A stretch of DNA of 63,659 nt, counting the filler, from Folioceros fuciformis (lineage: Eukaryota): NCBI GenBank assembly GCA_049999805.1. It is 6 parts of 6 records of this genome, joined end to end, with 100 filler letters (N's around TTAATTAATTAA, not from the genome) between each part and the next. Parts side by side here need not be neighbours in the genome. Positions count along the whole stretch, not along the records: positions 15,998 to 25,585 come from JBNGIO010004118.1; 5 more parts are not named here. The stretch is one strand, 5' to 3'. Within the stretch, counting starts at the first letter, position 1. Each line of letters begins with the position of its first letter. The notes beneath the pieces are model-generated. The model saw nothing but the letters and a program-made list of their open reading frames with translations. It was not told the DNA's origin and searched no databases. The position numbers and the translations under genes are program-made. Of this stretch, positions 10,410 to 24,783 are shown one piece after another.

Positions 10410-11064
10410 AATGCCAGCATTCTTATCCGGGTGTATTTGTAGCAGCAGTGCCAGCATTCTTATCCGCTTGTATTTCTAGCAGCAGTGCCAGCATTCTTAT
10501 CCGCGTGTATTTGTAGCAGCAGTGCCAGCACTCTTATCCGCGTGTATTTGTAGCAGCAGTGCCAGCATTCTTTTCCGCGTGTATTTGTAGCAGCCGTGCC
10601 AGCATTCTTTTCCGCGTGTATTTGTAGTAGCGGTGCCAGCATTCTTATCCGCGTGTATTTGTAGCAGCGGTGCCAGCATTCTTATCTGCGTATATTTGTA
10701 GCAGCGGTGCCAGCATTCTTTTCCGCGTGTATTTGTAGCAGCCGTGCCAGCATTCTTNNNNNNNNNNNNNNNNNNNNNNNNNNNNNNNNNNNNNNNNNNN
10801 NNNNNNNNNNNNNNNNNNNNNNNNNNNNNNNNNNNNNNNNNNNNNNNNNNNNNNNNNAGTGCCAGCATTCTTATCCGCGTGTATTTGTAGCAGCAGTGCC
10901 AGCATTCTTATCCGCGTGTATTTGTAGCAGCAGTGCCAGCATTCTTATCCGCGTGTATTTGTAGCAGCAGTGCCAGCATTCTTATCCGCGTGTATTTGTA
11001 GCAGCAGTGCCAGCATTCTTATCCGCGTGTATTTGTAGTAGCAGTGCCAGCATTCTTATCCGCG
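10410..11064 (+). repeat. 37-nt minisatellite (GTAGCAGCAGTGCCAGCATTCTTATCCGCGTGTATTT), at least 14 sequenced copies plus an internal N gap
   Basis: Head-to-tail, near-identical units with no unique spacers. Confidence 0.95.
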
Positions 11065-15897: not shown

Positions 15898-15997
15898 NNN
15901 NNNNNNNNNNNNNNNNNNNNNNNNNNNNNNNNNNNNNNNNNTTAATTAATTAANNNNNNNNNNNNNNNNNNNNNNNNNNNNNNNNNNNNNNNNNNNN
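15898..15997. other. Artificial contig linker
   Basis: N44-TTAATTAATTAA-N44. Confidence 0.97.
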
Positions 15998-15999
15998 CG

Positions 16000-17874
16000 T
16001 TGATGGAGAATGTGTGCGACTCGCGCTGGACATATTCCATCTTCTGGCAGCTGACGGGGACGGGCATAGCGCCCGGGCAGCGGACGTTGGGCTGGGGGGA
16101 CGGGGAATTGCGGCGGAAGGAGTCCGACATGCACACGGAGCGGACGGTGGACAGCGAGCAGCAGGCGGCCAGGATCCGGGTTCTGCAGGAGCTGGAGGCG
16201 CTTGTGAGCCGCGAGTCGCGGGATACCAGCCAGGATCTGTCGCAGGATTTTGTGTCGGATACGGAGTGGTTCTTTCTGTTCAGCATGTTGCAGACTATTC
16301 CGGAGGGGAGCTGCGTGCCCGGGAGGGCTCTCATGAAGGGCGGGTTTGAGTGGCTCAACGAGCCGGCCAACCCGGAGCTGTGTGAGAGGGCAACGTTTGC
16401 GGGAGGGGCGGGCTTGCAGACCATTGTGGCTCTGCCCGTGTCGCAAGGGGTTGTGGAGCTTGGTTCTACCGAGCGTATCTTGCCGGATGTGGGCTTTATT
16501 GATCGAGTAGAGCATCTGTTCGAGGGGGGGGATTCTCGCTCGGCCTGGCCGGTCGGGGACTACCACTTGCCGCTGGCTCATGAGGAGGTGGAGACGCTCT
16601 CGTATTTCAACTCGGACTACTTTTGGAACGGGAATGGCTTGCCTCCGGCCATGGATCACCCTAAGGACCACGACTACAACCAGCAGCTGCAGCACCAGCA
16701 TCAGCAGGTCAGGCAGTTTCCGGCTCAGCAACAGGCTCCTGCTGACGACTTTCTTGTGGAGAATCTTGCCTTTCTGAATTCCATGGGCGTGGACATCCCC
16801 ACCTTCCACCACAACGCCTTCGCCATGCCGGAGCAGAAGGGATACGGTGTGCCGCAGCCTAGGATACATGTTGAGATACAGGCTCACACTCAGATCCCGC
16901 TGGGGGCTGGTGAGATTTTGAACCCGACAGCGGCTGTGGTTGCCCGCGCACAGCCGCCGCTGTCGCTCAAGCCTGAGGTTGCACCTGTGCAGAATGGGCT
17001 GCACATGTTGCGGGAAAAGCCTCAGCTTGTGAAGCAGCAGCAATATTCTGATGGTCTGGTGCTCCCCTCTGCCACCAACATGGGATCCAGCATTGAGCCG
17101 GAGCAAGAAATGGACTCTGAGGCTGAGGTTTCCTTCAAGGAGTCTGAGGAGAGCAGCCTCAACAATGGTCAGAAGCCACCACGCAAGCGAGGACGAAAAC
17201 CGGCTAACAACAGGGAGGAGCCTTTGAACCATGTGCAAGCTGAGAGGCAGCGTCGTGAGAAGCTGAATCAGCGCTTCTACGCTCTCAGGTCTGTGGTGCC
17301 CAATGTTTCCAAGATGGACAAGGCGTCTTTGCTAGGTGATGCGATTGCGTACATCAAGGACTTGCAAACCAAATTGCAAGAGTCGGAGGTCAAGATCAAG
17401 ACTTTGCAGTCACAGGCACCGCCGCAGATGGACAAGGCAGCCATGGAGGCAGCCTCCAAGGGTGATCAGGAGGCTGGGAATTCTGGAGGAGGGCCCGGTG
17501 GAAGGCTGATGTGCGTGAGCAATCGGGTTCCACCAGATCAGAAGCCGTCCATTCAGGTTGACATATGTGGTCTGGAGGTGTTTATCAGAGTTCGGTATAA
17601 ACGAGAAGCGTATCCCATCACACAACTGCTGTCAAGCTTGCAAGACTTGCAGTTGGACGTGAGGGATGCAAATATTTCCACTGTGGACGGCTCCATGGTT
17701 CATCACGTTGTGTCAGCCAAGTTGAAAAAGGAGCATGAAGAGATCAAGAAAGAAATGTTTCTGGAGGCTCTGGACAGAGCATTTCAGTTTACTCCTTTGC
17801 CTACAAAGCCAGAAAATGGGAGCATTGGCAACAGCAAGCAACCTAGTACAAGATTTGCAGAACCTCAGAGGTAG
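16000..17874 (+). CDS. MYC-type bHLH transcription factor (subgroup IIId/e, MYC2-like), intronless, probably 5'-truncated at the contig edge
   Basis: bHLH-MYC_N motifs [22 protein letters not shown] and GVVELGS; b[60 protein letters not shown]-like C-terminus. Confidence 0.93.
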
Positions 17875-18729
17875 ATCTTCTGACAGCGAACGTTAAATGG
17901 TGTCCTCCCGCTTGTACACGTAGTGCCTTGTATGGTCAGGTTGGGTGCCGAAGTTAGCTGTCGGTAGAAAGATGGAGTTGACCCTGTCTCTTGTATGCTG
18001 CAGGAGGACTGTACACTAAGCATACTCTGTAAGATGGGTGGGGTAGCCTCCGTTTAGGGGTGCCTGCAGAGGGTGAGGTGAAGGGCGTGTGCTTCTCACG
18101 CTTGTATCCCTCTTACACCTACTGGGATGCAATTTATTCAGGGTACGTGGTAGGTAGCAGGCCTGTCAACTTGTAAATCATCTTGTTGCTCCTCTTTGTT
18201 TGAGAGGAGGAAAGTTTGTCAGCCTTCGAATTAAATTGTACTTTGCCTCTCTTGTACGTGTGCAACAGATTCATCAACTAGGGGAAACCACCTATAAGCG
18301 GGGGCACATGTGCCAATTCATGTACAAAGGGGCTAAGCTGGGGGATATGCATCAGTTGGTGGTTTGTGGGCATTTCTCTACTTATTCAAGGCTTTATGTA
18401 AGACAAGCTTTTGGCACATCTAGACAATTATATGGAGGATAGACTGTTGTACTCAGGGTCGGAGCGTGATCCAGGCCTGTATAACAGAAAGCGCTGCTAC
18501 TTCTTGGAAAGTGACCATGTAACGTAACACAAATCTGAATATCGGCTGGTTAGTTGAGACGGAGCAATTTTCAGGTGGGGGTGGCAGGATGGTGGATGAA
18601 GCCGATGGGTGGTTTGGCGTCGTGGGACAAGGTTCTGTTCCTGTGCCATGAAATGCCACCCACAAGTTTCAGTCTAGGATCAGACCCACGTGGATCTTAA
18701 CGATGATGGAAGGAAAAACTTGAATCCAT

Positions 18730-21488
18730 TTATTCCCGATTGTCACCCTGAGTCTCGTGAGTCACAAAAGGGTTTCCCATCCTTGCTCCCGTTGTCAATT
18801 GGAATGGCGGACTTTGCAACGCGAGTTGAGGTGGAGATTCGGTCGTATATTGCCATGCCGGCTCGCTCACTTGCAGCCGCTCCGACAAGACCCTTGTCAC
18901 GACCGTCATGGTCGGGCGCGCATGACGGAGAGTGTCCACGCAAGCCGCGGCCAGGCGCAGCAACAGGTGCAGGTCGGGCGCATAGAAAACGCCCTCCAAC
19001 CGAGGGTCGACGACCGAGTCCGCCACCGCCCGCCTCTCTAACCAGGGCGCCGCCCAGGTGGTGAGCAGGCAGCCGTCCCGAAGCGCCGGTCTCCCGCTCA
19101 CCAGCTCCAGCAGCAGCACTCCAAAGCTGTAGACGTCGCTCTTGGCGGAGCACAACCCCGTCTGCTCGTAAGCCGGGTCGATGTACCCGGGGGATCCCCG
19201 CACTAGCGTCACCTGCCCGGACTCCGACGTGTTGTCGCCACCCGACGTGGCCATGGACGAGGCCTTGGACGTGGCCTTGGACAACCCGAAGTCCGCCAGC
19301 TTCGCCACGCCGCACTTGGACAGCAGCACGTTCGCCGACTTCACGTCCCGATGCAACACCTGCGGGTTGCACCCGTGGTGCAAGTACTCCAGCGCGCTCG
19401 ACACCTGCAGCGCCACCTTCATCCGGCACCTCCACGGTAGCACGTTATCCGGCGTGTTGTTATGCAGCCGGTCGAACAGGCTCCCTCCCTCCAGGAACTC
19501 GAAAACAAGGGGCCACGGCACTGGAGTTTGGCAATCCAATGTACTGCAGTCAGTCGTCAAAGACGTTGGCATGGGAGGGAGGAGGTACACAAGGTTCAAG
19601 CGGCGTTTCTACCATCGCTCCCACCTATTCCTTACTTACCGGCTTCGGTGCAGTAGCCGATGAGATTGACGAGGTAGCGGTGATGGATCCGCATGAGAAT
19701 GGTAGCTTCCTTGACGGACACGTCCGCCTCGGCCTTGGCCTTTGGCTTGTTGGGGTCCACCCGACTCACCTTCACGGCCCCCAAGCTCCCGTCTGGGAAG
19801 GTCGCCCTGTAGACGACGCCGTAGCCCCCGGCTCCCACCCTGGTCCTGAAGCCGGCAGTGGCCGTGTCCAGCTCCTTCCATGTGAAGGGGCGCATTTTGG
19901 ACACGCAGTCGGTTCCCGCGTCCGAGAGCGGGGGTTTGGGTTTGGATGCGATGCTTCGGCAGAACCACATGGCACACCACGCCACGCCCAGCAGCAGCGC
20001 GCTGAGAGAGACCGGGATTATCACAGACAGCAGCAGGCTGTGGCGGGTGGCGGGGGGACCGGGACCAGTAGCAGTCGTAGTCGTACTAGGGTCCGGGCCG
20101 TAGGACACGACGGCGTTGAGGGTGACGTCGTCGATGGCGGGCCCGCACTGTGAGTCTGTGTCACCCTTGGAGAAGGCGATGACAACGGGGTTGTCCAGCG
20201 TCGTGAGGTAGAGCTGGCAAGATGTCCAGTGCATGGTGGTGGGGGTGTTGTTTCCGGCGTCGTAGGTGAAATCGGTGTCGCCTTGCGGCACGGCGTTGTA
20301 GAGCTGCACGCTGAGGTGGCGCAGGTTGGAGTTGGGGCAGAGGTACTGGGGGGGCGGGTGGCCGGACAGCTTGAATGAGAGGGAGAAGTTGGAGCTAGGC
20401 GGCAGGGTCAGGGTCTGCGCGATGACCGCCGACTCGTAGCCGAACCAGCCGCAGCTGAGGTGGATGGAGGTGTCTCCACTGGACGCGGTCCATTTCAACT
20501 GCTGCACGTACTCGATGCACATTTTCTGCAGCGGATCTCCTTCCTGGTCCGAGATGGACGAGTTTACGTGCAACACCATCTCCGCGTCCCGCACCACCTG
20601 CCATGAGCCGATGGGGAAGAGCGTGAGGCGGTCCGCGATGGTGAAAGATCCCTCGCCACTTTCCAGCCGCACCGTGGCATGCTCGAAGCTCCCGTCCCGG
20701 ATGATGTTGATAGTAGGGTCGGGATCACTCGCAACCGGCACTGCCACTGCGTCGAGCACCTGCAATCGCTGCACACGCACACAACGCTGTGAATTCTCAC
20801 GAATTCCGCTTCCATGCAACGCCTCGTGATCGGGACGACCGGCGCTCAGTACCTGCTGCGTGGAGGAATAGGCGGCGTAGCTGTAGGAGTCGACAGGCAA
20901 GACAATGAAGTAGGAGGTGAGCGAGCCCCTGGGTTGCAGAAACAGGTGGTACTTCCCTCTCGCAGCAGTGCTGTTTCCCGCGATGAACAGCGGCTGAGGC
21001 CAAGGGATCATGCTCTGCACCGTTCCATCATCCAGCAAGTGCCACTGCTGCGCCTGCAACACCGGGTTGCACGCCCGGAGCTCGAGCCGGAAAGGAAACG
21101 GATCGTCCTTGCCATAGGGGAGACGCACCCCGGTGATGCACACGGCGGGGCCGCTGCTGTTGGCGTGATCCTGCATCATGATGGCCCCGGTCTGGCTCGC
21201 CATCGAATTCCCGAATCCGGACAAGAAGGTCCACACTTCGTTGGACTCGAACGCCCAGCAGGGGTAGATCCCGACCTGGAGCTTCTGGTAGGTAGTGAGG
21301 TTCGCTTGATGCGGCCCCGTGAATGCGTTGAGGCAGAGGCGGCAGATGGGGAGCCCGGGAGACTGCTCCGGCTTCCCTACAATGATCCATGACCGCTGCA
21401 GCCCGTCCAAGGCCACGCTCACCCCGCTCCCCCCTCTCCCAACACAAATCAGGAGCAGTAGCAGCAGAGCCGCGGCCCAGCTCCGCAT
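18730..21488 (-). CDS. Receptor-like Ser/Thr kinase (RD type): signal peptide + ricin-B-like lectin + DUF642/choice-of-anchor-C-like domain + TM + kinase; one intron at 19521-19639
   Basis: Signal MRSWAAALLLLLLICVG; TM LLLSVIIPVSLSALLLGVAWCAMWFC; kinase GAGGYGVVY, AVK, HRDVKSANVLL, DFG, GSPGYIDPAY and SDVYSFG. A GTAAGT...CCAG intron joins YCTEA to VPWPLVFEF in frame. Confidence 0.88.
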
Positions 21489-21490
21489 CC

Positions 21491-21673
21491 CTACGCCGGT
21501 TCGCGTAATGCGGTCCCGCGAAGGCGTTGAGGCAGAGGCTGCAGATAGGGAGCCCGTCCGTCTCCTCCGCCTTCCCCTGGACGATCCCGGTGCTGCCCGT
21601 CCGAGGGCGCGCCGGGCTCACCCCGTTCCCAGCGCACAGCAAGAACAGCAGCGCCGCGGCCCAGCTCGCCATC
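21491..21673 (-). pseudogene. Partial tandem duplicate of the RLK N-terminus
   Basis: MASWAAALLFLLCAG...GKAEETDGLPICSLCLNAFAGPHYAN matches MRSWAAALLLLLLICVG...GKPEQSPGLPICRLCLNAFTGPHQAN, and is out of frame with the full gene. Confidence 0.8.
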
Positions 21674-22804
21674 GTGCCCAATCCTACGCCTAGCAGCGCG
21701 GCCCACAGGCGGAGGCGGGATCGTCCAGGCCGTCGTCTGTCTCGGTCCCAGAGCCCGGCCGGCAGGAGCGATATACTCGAGGCTCCTTTGTTGCTGTGTG
21801 GCCAGCGTCGATACAAGCTCATGGTGCCCGGCACAACATGTGTAATTCCACTGCACGAGGCTGGTATGCTGGTAGACAGAAACAGCAATGCTTCATGACC
21901 AGCATTCACAAGGCGGGTACTGTCATTCGGTCGGGTTTGGGCAGAGGAATACAAGGCTGGTCCTTCTTCTCCTTCTTCCGCTCCAATTCCTCCCTCCACA
22001 CATGCGGTTGCCATAGACACCACCGTTCAGGAACCTGCGCTGGCGTACTGCAGTGTAGTGGCTTTGCTTTAGGGTTGGGCAGAACTTTGGTCCTCGGAAG
22101 GTAGGTGACACTCTCGTCTTCATCTAGAAGATCAACGTCGTTGATCAACAAAACTGGCTTGATCCTCCACCGCTTTGCAAGAGTCGGGGCTTCCGTTTCT
22201 GCACCTGGGCCAGAAACTCCAGATCCATCCCCCAGCCCAATCAGGACGGCTCACAGGCCAAGCACATCCTAAAATGCTCACCTCCCGAATGCTACGTCAG
22301 TGTTCGCCCCGCACTTTCTCACTCATGCCAACCATGGTTCTGCAGCTAGAAGTCTGGAAACCATCGCTTTTGTAATGCCGGCGGCTGGGCTGGGAGTGAT
22401 CTACCTCATGATCTGATTTCTGTATTTCTATTTGCGTAGTTATATATTTTGTTTCGAATTACATTACCTTCCATCGCACACTCAACATGAATAAAATTAA
22501 TTTATTAATTGAATGATATAATATTATTTATTTATTATATGGAATACAAATACGAATGTACGGTGGACGGTTATGCTTTTTTTTCTCCTCAATTGTATAT
22601 TGTACACGAATATTCTAGGATATCTCTTACATACATACTAGTTTTAAGGTTCATGTCACATTATGAAATGTCCTAGGTACGGACTTTTTTTTTTTCTTTT
22701 GTCTTTGCTACCGTGTGGACCTATTAGGAACCATAAACTTTCTTTCTTCTTGGTACACAAGATTGGTGATGTTATTTTTCTTCCCTCCTCCCACATCATG
22801 TAGG

Positions 22805-23780
22805 CAATCGTCGGACCTCGGTCTACACTTGCATATTGTCCCACCGGTCGGACCTCGATCTGCACTTGCACATTGTCCCACCGGTCGGACCTCGATACAC
22901 TTGCATATTATCCCACCAGATTGCGTTGACTTTGCAAATTGTCTTGCAAGGTGGATCTTGGGGATTGTTCTTACATAGTGAGTTGTTGCAAATTGCCTTG
23001 CAAAGTGGGTAGAACTGGGGGATTGTACTTGCACAGTAAGTTGTTGCATATTGGCTTGCAAAGCGAGTAGAACTTGGGGATTGTCCTTGCACAATAAGCT
23101 ATTGCAGATTGCCTTGCAAAGTGGGTAGAACTTGGGGATTGTCCTTGCACAGTGAGCTGTTGTAGATTGGCTTGCAAAGTGGGTAGAACTTGGGGATTGT
23201 CCTTACACAGTGAGCTGTTGAAAATTGGCTTACAAAGCGGGTAGAACTTGGGGATTGTCCTTACATAGTGAGTTGAAGATGGTTTATCGTACACTATGTT
23301 ATAGATGGTCCACGCACACTGCATGGCATAATGTCCCTATAAATTGCCCTACAACTGGCCCCATAGATTGCCATGCAGATTGCCAATTGTTGTGGGTGTG
23401 TTGCATTGGAGATTGTAAGACCCTAAAGCCTTGCAAACCAAGTGGAACTTGCATATTGCCCTTACAAACTACGTTGGCCTTGTAGATTGACCTTGCAAAC
23501 CATGTAGAACTTGTAGATTGTCCCAATAGACTGCGCTACACTAGCGTAGCAGATTGTCCTTGTAGATTGTGGTGACCTTGCAGATTGTCCTTGCACAGTG
23601 GGTTGCAAATTGTCCTTGCACAGTACCTTGCAAATGGTCCTTACATAGTGGGTTGCAAAGATTGTCCCAACACACTGAGTTGCAAATAGCCCGTACAAAG
23701 TGCATTGTAGATGGTCCATGCGCATTGCGTTGCACAGTGCCCTTCAGAATTGCCATGTAGCTTGCCCCCATATTGCCTTG
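22805..23780 (+). repeat. Compound degenerate minisatellite: ~37-nt units, then ~58-nt units (TTGCAAAGTGGGTAGAACTTGGGGATTGTCCTTGCACAGTGAGCTG...), then decayed variants
   Basis: Recurrent ttgcaaag/attgtccttgcaca motifs read directly. Confidence 0.8.
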
Positions 23781-23850
23781 TACATTGCAAATTGTTGTGG
23801 GTGTCACTCTTTCACACACCCTACGGTGAGCATCTAGAGGGAAGGATTGG

Positions 23851-23996
23851 AGAGTGTGATTTCAGATAAGGGTCCTATGCAGTTGGGCTTGTAGATCGAA
23901 GAGTGTGATTTCATATAAGGGTCCTATGCAGTTGGGCTTGTAGATCGAAGAGTGTGATTTCAGATAAGGGTCCTATGCAGTTGGGCTTGTAGATCG
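23851..23996 (+). repeat. ~49-nt tandem repeat x3 (AGAGTGTGATTTCAGATAAGGGTCCTATGCAGTTGGGCTTGTAGATCGA)
   Basis: Direct reading of the sequence. Confidence 0.9.
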
Positions 23997-24783
23997 TCTT
24001 AGGGGTTGCAAGAGTAGTGTGGAGATGTTGACCTTCGTCGTAGATTTTCTTGTAGATGGCAAATCCCGATTGTCTCATAGATGGCCTTGCACTATGTAAT
24101 CGTATAGAACAGAAGCAACCTATACACAAGGATTGCAGATGCAAGTTGTTTTGAAGGTTGTGGCTACTAGGTTGTTTTGCCTGCTAGGTTTGCGAGAAGG
24201 AGGTGAGGCAGCACNNNNNNNNNNNNNNNNNNNNNNNNNNNNNNNNNNNNNNNNNNNNNNNNNNNNNNNNNNNNNNNNNNNNNNNNNNNNNNNNNNNNNN
24301 NNNNNNNNNNNNNNTTTTATCCTTATATCACATCTCAAATAACATATCACAAATCACCCTCTAAGTGCTTTAAAAAATGATACCCGCTATTCCCCTCTAG
24401 TCGTTAACACGGATGTTTAAATCAAAGATCTGGAAAGCAGCTCAAGGGCAACGCCCAATTCTTCAATACAACACTTTTATGAAAACCAAAATTTCCACGA
24501 TGAACGCTGACGACTGTTGCGAAGGACGCAAAAACAAGGCACCTTCTACTCACGGCTTCATCTACAAAACAATCACATAGCATGACACCGGCAAACGAAC
24601 GTCTTCCGATCCCACTTAGGTTGAAGGAATATTTCATAAATAAATGAGCTACAATCTAACTCCAGATTTCCTCCTGCCTGATTCAGCCGTCCAGAAAATG
24701 CAATTGGCTTACTCCAATCTCAAGAGGGGCGAACACTACGAGGAGAACAATCAGAGGCCTGTTCTCCACGTGATTCAGCATTG

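Follow-up and report, generated by a model that had tools for sequence, protein, structure and literature searches.

A bacterial-looking DUF642 module in a receptor-like kinase of Folioceros fuciformis probably belongs to an old plant receptor class

A stretch of 63,659 nucleotides from the genome of Folioceros fuciformis (assembly GCA_049999805.1), referred to below as the window, contains on its minus strand a gene for a receptor-like kinase (18730..21488, in the part derived from JBNGIO010004118.1), whose ectodomain includes a DUF642-type module that looks more bacterial than plant. The locus raises the question of whether a bacterial surface-protein domain was captured and fused to a plant kinase, as an initial annotation had proposed from three peptide motifs. 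The analysis described here points elsewhere: the gene probably encodes a native plant receptor kinase, a divergent member of an old class that combines Ricin_B, DUF642, and kinase domains, in which the bacterial look is a property of the class and not the trace of a recent capture, with the domain trees leaning to one plant DUF642 lineage. Any bacterial origin of the module would be ancient, and is unproven.

The module itself is readily located. A long open reading frame (ORF) on the minus strand, at 21617-19632, holds all three of the quoted peptides, each inside the annotated interval 20120-20710 and within one uninterrupted DUF642 domain: WTASSGDTSIHL at 20492-20457 (bacterial consensus YWxAxxGxxSxDL), LSFKLSGHP at 20381-20355 (bacterial consensus FxLAGNP), which is followed by a cysteine (..PPPQYLC..), and DFTYDAGNNTPTTMHW at 20273-20226 (bacterial consensus FxFDxTGxxxxxMGW). 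All features of the gene described below lie on this same strand. The domain as modeled (P0002, 216 residues) spans 20091..20738 and is called as a single beta-sandwich module of DUF642 or choice-of-anchor-C type from its profile matches and a structure model; it carries the C-terminal CGPxxD signature as QCGPAIDDV (20124..20150), the cysteine of which pairs in the alignment with that following GHP. The resemblance goes beyond chance, with P0002 matching Pfam DUF642 (PF04862) at 38.4 bits (E 1.4e-9; gathering cutoff 27) and the NCBIfam choice-of-anchor C model TIGR04362 at 48.5 bits (E 1.1e-12), the latter being the highest-scoring curated model for this domain and the score lying far under its curated cutoff of 120. 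Within the ORF translation, PF04862 scores 35 bits and is aligned over profile positions 37-156 of 157. The module is present as a single copy, as first annotated: the 619-residue ORF translation contains one DUF642 stretch, and tblastn revealed no second copy in the window.

The module does not stand alone but lies in a protein whose parts run, in order, from a hydrophobic N terminus through a Cys-rich region of ∼190 residues and one DUF642 domain to a hydrophobic span and a kinase. The same plan is found in Ginkgo biloba. A phmmer match of the module (P0006) is the Ginkgo protein Gb_21948, which comprises Ricin_B_lectin, DUF642, and Pkinase domains and is collinear with the window protein, starting at the Cys-rich N-terminal region and extending to the kinase (BLASTP E 2e-34). 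Ginkgo has a second full-length paralogue with the same three domains, Gb_14982, and two fragments, Gb_14980 and Gb_14985. The extent of the whole gene was assigned from the ORF list and a reading of the strand, and is collinear with both full-length Ginkgo proteins across the ectodomain, the membrane span, and the kinase. The parts come in identical order throughout, and the DUF642 module, the single membrane span, and the protein kinase domain follow one another as expected of the class. All three proteins share conserved N-terminal Cys and Trp columns, one DUF642 domain with a Cys pair and CGPxID, a membrane span, and an RD (Arg-Asp) kinase. They differ in degree: identity between the window protein and the Ginkgo proteins is 43-44% in the kinase and only 25-34% in the ectodomain, the window N-terminal region falls under the Pfam Ricin_B threshold and has extra loops, and the window DUF642 domain carries an insert of 22-24 residues and reads DGSFE in place of NGxFE, where the Ginkgo kinases read NGGFEDCG or NGDFEECG, together with CGPIID. 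Within Ginkgo, the gene numbers of three of the proteins recovered (P0056, P0060, and P0068; Gb_14980/Gb_14982/Gb_14985) are close, and the sequences of the fragments nearly repeat that of Gb_14982, a pattern suggestive of a local tandem cluster of such receptors.

The design extends beyond gymnosperms. A 2025 study of fern immune receptors (PMC12512272) describes DUF642-kinases in ferns and cites an example from Taxus chinensis (A0AA38CBH3). Its Table S2 includes 24 receptor-like kinase rows with DUF642, of which 11 read Ricin_B_lectin, DUF642, kinase: one from Adiantum capillus-veneris, one from A. nelumboides, seven from Alsophila spinulosa, and two from "Isosin," which was read as Isoetes sinensis from the species list of that paper; the fern, Isoetes, and Taxus members are known from these table rows and this citation only. 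A further eight rows of the table have DUF642 (or CBM_4_9 and DUF642) with a kinase and without Ricin_B (Alsophila four, Ceratopteris one, Marsilea three), and the remaining five, from Adiantum and Alsophila, are leucine-rich repeat kinases with one or two N-terminal DUF642 domains. Whether these last rows represent genuine fusions or gene models that were merged, the table would place two-repeat DUF642 modules in ferns. The Alsophila rows numbered 10850-10866 in Table S2 look cluster-like, as in Ginkgo. With Ricin_B-DUF642-kinase rows in both ferns and Isoetes, the architecture dates back at least to the lycophyte/euphyllophyte split, if the gene models tabulated there are right. The literature searched yielded no study or experimental characterization of the Ricin_B-DUF642-kinase class; the class is thus already in print as table rows and one sentence, and the Folioceros gene is a new, divergent member of it.

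How bacterial, then, does the module look? The motif contrast given in the initial annotation proved accurate for the proteins compared. An alignment of 45 sequences, most of them non-plant, has the consensus YWxAxxGxxSxDL, FxLAGNP, and FxFDxTGxxxxxMGW, whereas the canonical plant DUF642 proteins, sampled here as six repeats of three legume proteins (P0062, P0063, and P0065), lack the GNP and MGW motifs and read ARTCAQ or GDAGNSC and GNGW or KGGF at those places. Like-for-like profile scores, given as PF04862/TIGR04362 in bits, follow the same division. The window domain scores 38.4/48.5, Ginkgo Gb_21948 61.3/73.0, and Gb_14982 68.5/74.5, as compared with 274-292/92-104 for the three legume proteins with two repeats each, 76.4/121 for a bacterial protein from Limihaloglobus (P0027), and 88.7/172 for the bacterial P0013. 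The TIGR04362 cutoff is reached by the two bacterial proteins, with the Ginkgo kinases and the legume proteins falling under it. Judged by these profile scores, the kinase-type domain is clearly not of the canonical plant type and lies on the bacterial side.

The canonical family, comprising secreted cell-wall proteins of the DGR2 type and their relatives, has PF04862, the Cys pair, and CGPxID in common with the window domain, but is built from two repeats with no membrane span or kinase, in contrast to the one domain followed by a membrane span and kinase seen here, and scores far higher on PF04862 while lacking the GNP-like and MxW motifs. The review PMC6651502 describes this family as exclusive to seed plants, with the signatures NGXFEXXP and CGPVXD; the window protein reads DGSFEHAT, departing from the first at N and P, and CGPAID, departing from the second at V. 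The bacterial choice-of-anchor C proteins (TIGR04362; often with PEP-CTERM or other sorting signals) share with the window protein the single-domain format and the WxAxxGxxSxxL, GNP-like, and MxW motifs, but the window domain has no sorting signal and sits inside an intron-bearing eukaryotic receptor kinase. The paired cysteines, one following the GNP-like motif and the other in CGPxID, occur in 9/9 plant domains and 11/72 non-plant domains; the pair was rejected as a plant-only marker, since those 11 domains have both cysteines.

An exhaustive phmmer search of 1.84 billion representative sequences with the window domain (E≤1e-3) gave 50 matches at 24-38% identity. Pfam identified DUF642 in 48 of these; one of the 48 is the Ginkgo receptor kinase, and the other 47 have DUF642 without a kinase, many of them together with PEP-CTERM, RHS, CHU_C, sigma-70, or Big_9 parts. 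No canonical plant DUF642 protein was found at this threshold. Taken with the profile scores, these matches bear out the earlier statement that the module is more bacterial-looking than canonical plant DUF642. The two matches in which Pfam found no DUF642 were set aside. The first, the nominal top match P0003 (from an Omnitrophota metagenome-assembled genome, or MAG; 3126 residues, E 1.7e-24), is not a homologue, its score being the sum of 27 weak matches of CarboxypepD_reg type, each of at most 12.6 bits, to query residues 57-119; the second is P0031. No close bacterial donor emerged from the phmmer search, where non-plant identity is at most 38%, or from a scan for the kinase-type motifs in one genome per bacterial species, where 4 loci were confirmed among 98 pattern matches, from Streptomyces, Fimbriiglobus, a Chloroflexia MAG, and Neolewinella (four phyla), at 21-31% identity. 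A word-indexed search with residues 262-470 of the window ORF found nothing at E≤1e-3 among 479 candidates (340-1084 residues), but too few exact words are shared, and this search is hence uninformative. On the sequences compared, the bacterial look is real, yet is a trait of the whole kinase-type class.

The phylogeny proposed in the initial annotation as a check was built from 81 DUF642 domains: three of kinase type (the window and the two full-length Ginkgo proteins), the six legume repeats, and 72 others labelled bacterial by default, only some of them named. Left out were P0001 (the same as P0002), P0053-55 (in the 90%-identity cluster of P0025), P0060 (a fragment), and partial domains aligned to less than 120 positions of the profile. 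A smaller set of 48 rows kept 39 of the 72 non-plant rows, dropping the longest branches and the extra repeats of multi-repeat proteins. Three careful maximum likelihood searches used LG+C20+F+G4 by posterior mean site frequencies (PMSF), with supports given as ultrafast bootstrap/SH-aLRT. In the 48-row tree, a branch separates all 39 non-plant rows from the kinase-type and canonical plant domains (89/80; present in 92% of bootstrap trees), and when the window domain is removed the non-plant rows still lie on one side of the same split (63/89). In the 81-row tree the kinase-type clade again adjoins the canonical plant clade, and the two are split from the other 71 rows with 59/13, one long-branch row (P0035) being on the plant side. 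In each of the four trees with the window domain, it groups with the Ginkgo domains as a clade, with SH-aLRT of 91 and 94 in two quick trees and 79/38 and 83/80 in the careful ones, and the Ginkgo domains are the nearest rows to the window by tree-path distance. The canonical family sits on long stem branches (2.1-2.3 plus 1.15 changes per column in the 48-row careful tree). Collectively, these data lean toward one plant lineage of DUF642 domains, of which the canonical family would be a fast-evolving branch. The row P0035, named as a protein of a Lobulomycetales (chytrid) MAG (3 kb contig), groups with the canonical plant repeats in the 81-row tree (86/81) on a very long branch, and could be a eukaryotic DUF642, a contaminant contig, or a product of long-branch attraction.

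Several observations weigh against this reading. The three careful trees do group the domain beside plant DUF642, the outcome that the initial annotation had named as refuting a capture, but the support is moderate to weak, and the bootstrap correlations (0.947, 0.923, and 0.905) had not settled. The quick trees, built from the same data and with lower likelihoods, place the kinase-type clade among non-plant rows, unsupported, and forcing a clade of the kinase-type domains with the bacterial P0027 costs only 2.26 log-likelihood units (approximately unbiased (AU) test, p 0.455). Long branches were flagged, and long-branch attraction between the plant groups is possible; canonical plant sampling consists of three legumes only; and the comparisons are biased because the non-plant rows were selected as best matches to the kinase-type profile or the window domain. 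A local profile of 30 short proteins (160-260 residues, nearly all of bacterial DUF642 type, one being a non-DUF642 Ginkgo fragment) gives the window domain 103 bits and the Ginkgo domains 111 and 122 bits, as compared with 29-61 for the legume repeats, in a set picked by similarity to the window, a bias that favors the window and, less so, Ginkgo. A profile of the six legume repeats ranks the window domain 71st of 73, with the Ginkgo domains 3rd and 7th. This ranking holds no decisive signal, and the kinase-type domains appear to have no clear special affinity to the canonical plant repeats. Finally, Pfam run on the residues encoded by 21488-20853 alone found no family at E≤1, and hence no Ricin_B_lectin (PF00652) match in the N-terminal region of the window protein.

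These observations can be set against three other accounts of the module. That bacterial DNA contaminates the assembly, or was chimerically joined to a plant contig, is barely credible: nothing beyond the resemblance speaks for it, and although the window does hold runs of N, the interval 15998-24214, which contains a MYC-type gene and the entire kinase gene, is free of them; chimeric assembly is therefore no issue here. In addition, the domain shares one exon with the membrane span and the kinase N-lobe, and that exon borders a GTAAGT intron after which a plant-type kinase follows. That this kinase gene recently captured a bacterial surface-protein gene, in its own lineage alone, is very improbable. 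Nothing favors it except the resemblance of the motifs and the absence of introns from the domain. The patchy presence expected of horizontal acquisition was not found, as Ginkgo has full-length homologous receptors and Table S2 of PMC12512272 lists the architecture in ferns and Isoetes; nor is the composition unlike that of the host gene, with GC content at third codon positions (GC3) of 0.82, 0.86, 0.80, and 0.82 along the four coding segments, where 0.86 belongs to the domain and the remaining values (0.80-0.82) to the rest of the gene. The identity ceiling of 38% for non-plant matches and the position of the Ginkgo domains as nearest rows also tell against capture in this gene or lineage.

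A more serious contender is an ancient bacterial transfer of the kinase-type DUF642 domain, separate from the origin of the canonical family and followed by fusion to a lectin-kinase in an early vascular plant. TIGR04362 outscores PF04862 in the window and in both Ginkgo proteins, as in bacteria and unlike in canonical plants, the short-protein profile shows the same preference, and with a kinase-type profile, proteins of actinobacterial appearance (72-75 bits) rank above canonical plant ones (59-64 bits); the nesting in the quick trees and the failure of the AU test to reject a clade with Limihaloglobus P0027 point the same way, as does the listing of DUF642-kinases in a lycophyte and ferns when the canonical family is described in PMC6651502 as confined to seed plants. 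On the other side, all three careful searches, with higher likelihoods than the quick ones, adjoin the kinase-type domains to canonical plant DUF642, there is no supported branch to any particular bacterial group, and the Cys pair is present in every plant domain but in a minority of the others. ESM Atlas features also put three Streptophyta DUF642 clusters on top (0.95), with bacterial clusters at 0.94. Moreover, the scores are accounted for just as well if ancestral motifs were retained and the canonical family diverged fast. A separate ancient transfer is considered unlikely. Of slightly better standing, but still doubtful, is the proposal that the single-module kinase DUF642 is the older plant form: a bacterial choice-of-anchor-C-type module would have entered an early vascular plant once and been wired to a lectin-kinase, and the two-repeat wall family would have arisen later, as the module was duplicated internally, lost its kinase, and diverged rapidly. 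Such a history would explain why the kinase-type domain has bacterial-like scores of intermediate size, why the careful trees place it between bacteria and canonical DUF642, and why it occurs in Isoetes and ferns, outside the reported canonical range. Overall, a native plant receptor kinase of an old class remains the probable explanation.

The AlphaFold2 model of the DUF642 domain, made from 45 aligned sequences, has a pLDDT of 84.5 and a pTM of 0.84. Its top Foldseek matches are CBM4-2 (2y64), CBM16 (2zew), CBM22, CBM35, a hyaluronan-binding module, and HpiC1-type cyclases, with E-values from 2e-6 to 1e-4, a probability of 1.0, and TM scores of ∼0.5 by query and 0.63-0.71 by target. A sequence-profile search of solved structures returned nothing meaningful (best E 0.21). 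The predicted fold is that of a beta-sandwich like those of carbohydrate-binding modules (CBMs). With CBM4, CBM16, CBM22, CBM35, and the HpiC1-type cyclases, the domain has this fold in common at a sequence identity of only 10-17%, so the likeness is at the level of the fold. Many of the bacterial homologues likewise show weak CBM_4_9 and HpiC1-like Pfam matches. The insert specific to the window domain, DAEMVLHVNSSISDQEGDPLQKMC (20517..20588), contains an NSS sequon, has no counterpart in either Ginkgo protein, and is modeled with lower confidence (means of 57-74 over blocks of 10 residues). A hidden intron at this place was rejected, as the internal GT..AG spans are merely ∼42-51 nucleotides and too short. 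The insert and the next ∼40 residues weakly resemble a CarboxypepD_reg-type repeat, the source of the spurious top match in the phmmer search.

The gene begins with an ATG at 21488-21486 and ends with a TAA stop codon at 18732-18730. Exon 1 (21488-20853, read from the sequence) encodes a signal-peptide-like N terminus, MRSWAAALLLLLLICVGRGGSG (21423..21488), called from the hydrophobic run in the translation, and the Cys-rich ectodomain region (20853..21422). This region is ricin-B-like by homology only, aligning with the Ricin_B_lectin part of the Ginkgo proteins; it has a QxW-like motif, AQQWHLL (21053-21033), and in a three-protein alignment its invariant Cys and Trp columns are shared with the two Ginkgo proteins. 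Between the two ectodomain modules lies a stretch of 93 nucleotides with splice-like GT..AG boundaries (20852-20760), which is either a candidate in-frame intron or linker coding sequence; it is open in frame, and the Ginkgo proteins carry linker residues at the corresponding place. Exon 2 (20759-19640) encodes the DUF642 domain, the membrane span LLLSVIIPVSLSALLLGVAWCAMWF (19962..20036), recognized as a hydrophobic run aligned with the hydrophobic stretch of the Ginkgo proteins, and the juxtamembrane region and kinase N-lobe (19640..19961), which was identified from partial Pkinase and PK_Tyr_Ser-Thr matches and the translation and contains the glycine loop GAGGYGVVY (19835-19809) and the GAVKV lysine. 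The second intron (19639-19521, read from the sequence) is 119 nucleotides long, in phase 1, with the boundaries G/GTAAGT and CCAG, and one acceptor only preserves the kinase frame (..TEA-V-PWPLVFEF..). Exon 3 (19520-18733) encodes the kinase C-lobe with HRDVKSANVLL, DFG, and GSPGYIDPAY, giving 86.7 bits with Pkinase and the identity to the Ginkgo kinases noted above. The statement that the module has no introns accordingly needs dividing: the domain is unbroken and collinear with the two Ginkgo proteins except for the insert, but the gene has one clear intron and one candidate. In the translations the motif set of an RD-type Ser/Thr kinase (GAGGYG, GAVKV, HRDVKSANVLL, DFG, and the APE-like GSPGYIDPAY) is complete, from which the kinase is predicted to be catalytically competent, of the active RD Ser/Thr type.

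The first ∼55 codons of the kinase gene are tandemly duplicated immediately upstream (21469-21672, minus strand), the copy having its ATG at 21672. The copy reads MASWAAALLFLL...LPICSLCLNAF.. where the gene itself reads MRSWAAALLLLL...LPICRLCLNAF.., is 50% identical over 54 residues (tblastn), and differs in frame from the main ORF; it may be an upstream ORF or a remnant. Beyond the 5′ end of the gene, at ∼22700-23900, the ORF list shows overlapping ORFs on both strands with repeated peptide units (..QSPSSTHFA..TIPKFYPLCK..), which suggests a tandem or dispersed DNA repeat. On the other side, a MYC-type basic helix-loop-helix (bHLH) ORF (15998-17874, plus strand; GC3 0.68) is convergent with the kinase gene, with 856 bp between the stop codons. 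The 5′ end of this ORF abuts two runs of 44 N, 12 bases apart (15898-15941 and 15954-15997), and the same 44-12-44 pattern occurs at five further places in the window.

If the gene is a native member of this class, the DUF642 region would be the second ectodomain module of an intact plant receptor-like kinase, the complete order being a signal peptide, a Cys-rich ricin-B-like region, one DUF642-type beta-sandwich, a membrane span, and an RD Ser/Thr kinase, in a class shared with Ginkgo and catalogued in ferns and Isoetes, with a DUF642-kinase cited for Taxus. The kinase-type domain would have retained the general DUF642 motifs (GNP-like, MxW, and WxAxxGxxSxxL), from which the two-repeat wall proteins of seed plants would have diverged along very long branches. 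Canonical DUF642 proteins have links to wall polysaccharides and pectin methylesterases reported in PMC13516882 and PMC6651502. Because of these links and the CBM-like fold, we infer that the ectodomain may be glycan-sensing, a beta-trefoil-like region and a CBM-like DUF642 module coupled to an RD kinase. The two lectin-like modules would bind a glycan, which could come from the cell wall (pectin or hemicellulose) or be a polysaccharide of microbial origin, and their occupancy would be relayed through the single membrane span to the kinase.

Among the publications searched, judged by titles and the beginnings of abstracts, no discussion of the origin of DUF642 or of its horizontal transfer was found. 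The two sources cited above report that canonical DUF642 proteins affect pectin methylesterification in seed plants. A receptor kinase with an unduplicated, less diverged DUF642 domain would offer a natural handle on the ligand of this domain, and the class may show how ferns, lycophytes, and gymnosperms employed a wall-binding module in signaling, either earlier than the secreted family or alongside it. The module's resemblance to bacterial versions would then be a family trait of an old plant receptor class, and no sign of fresh transfer or contamination.

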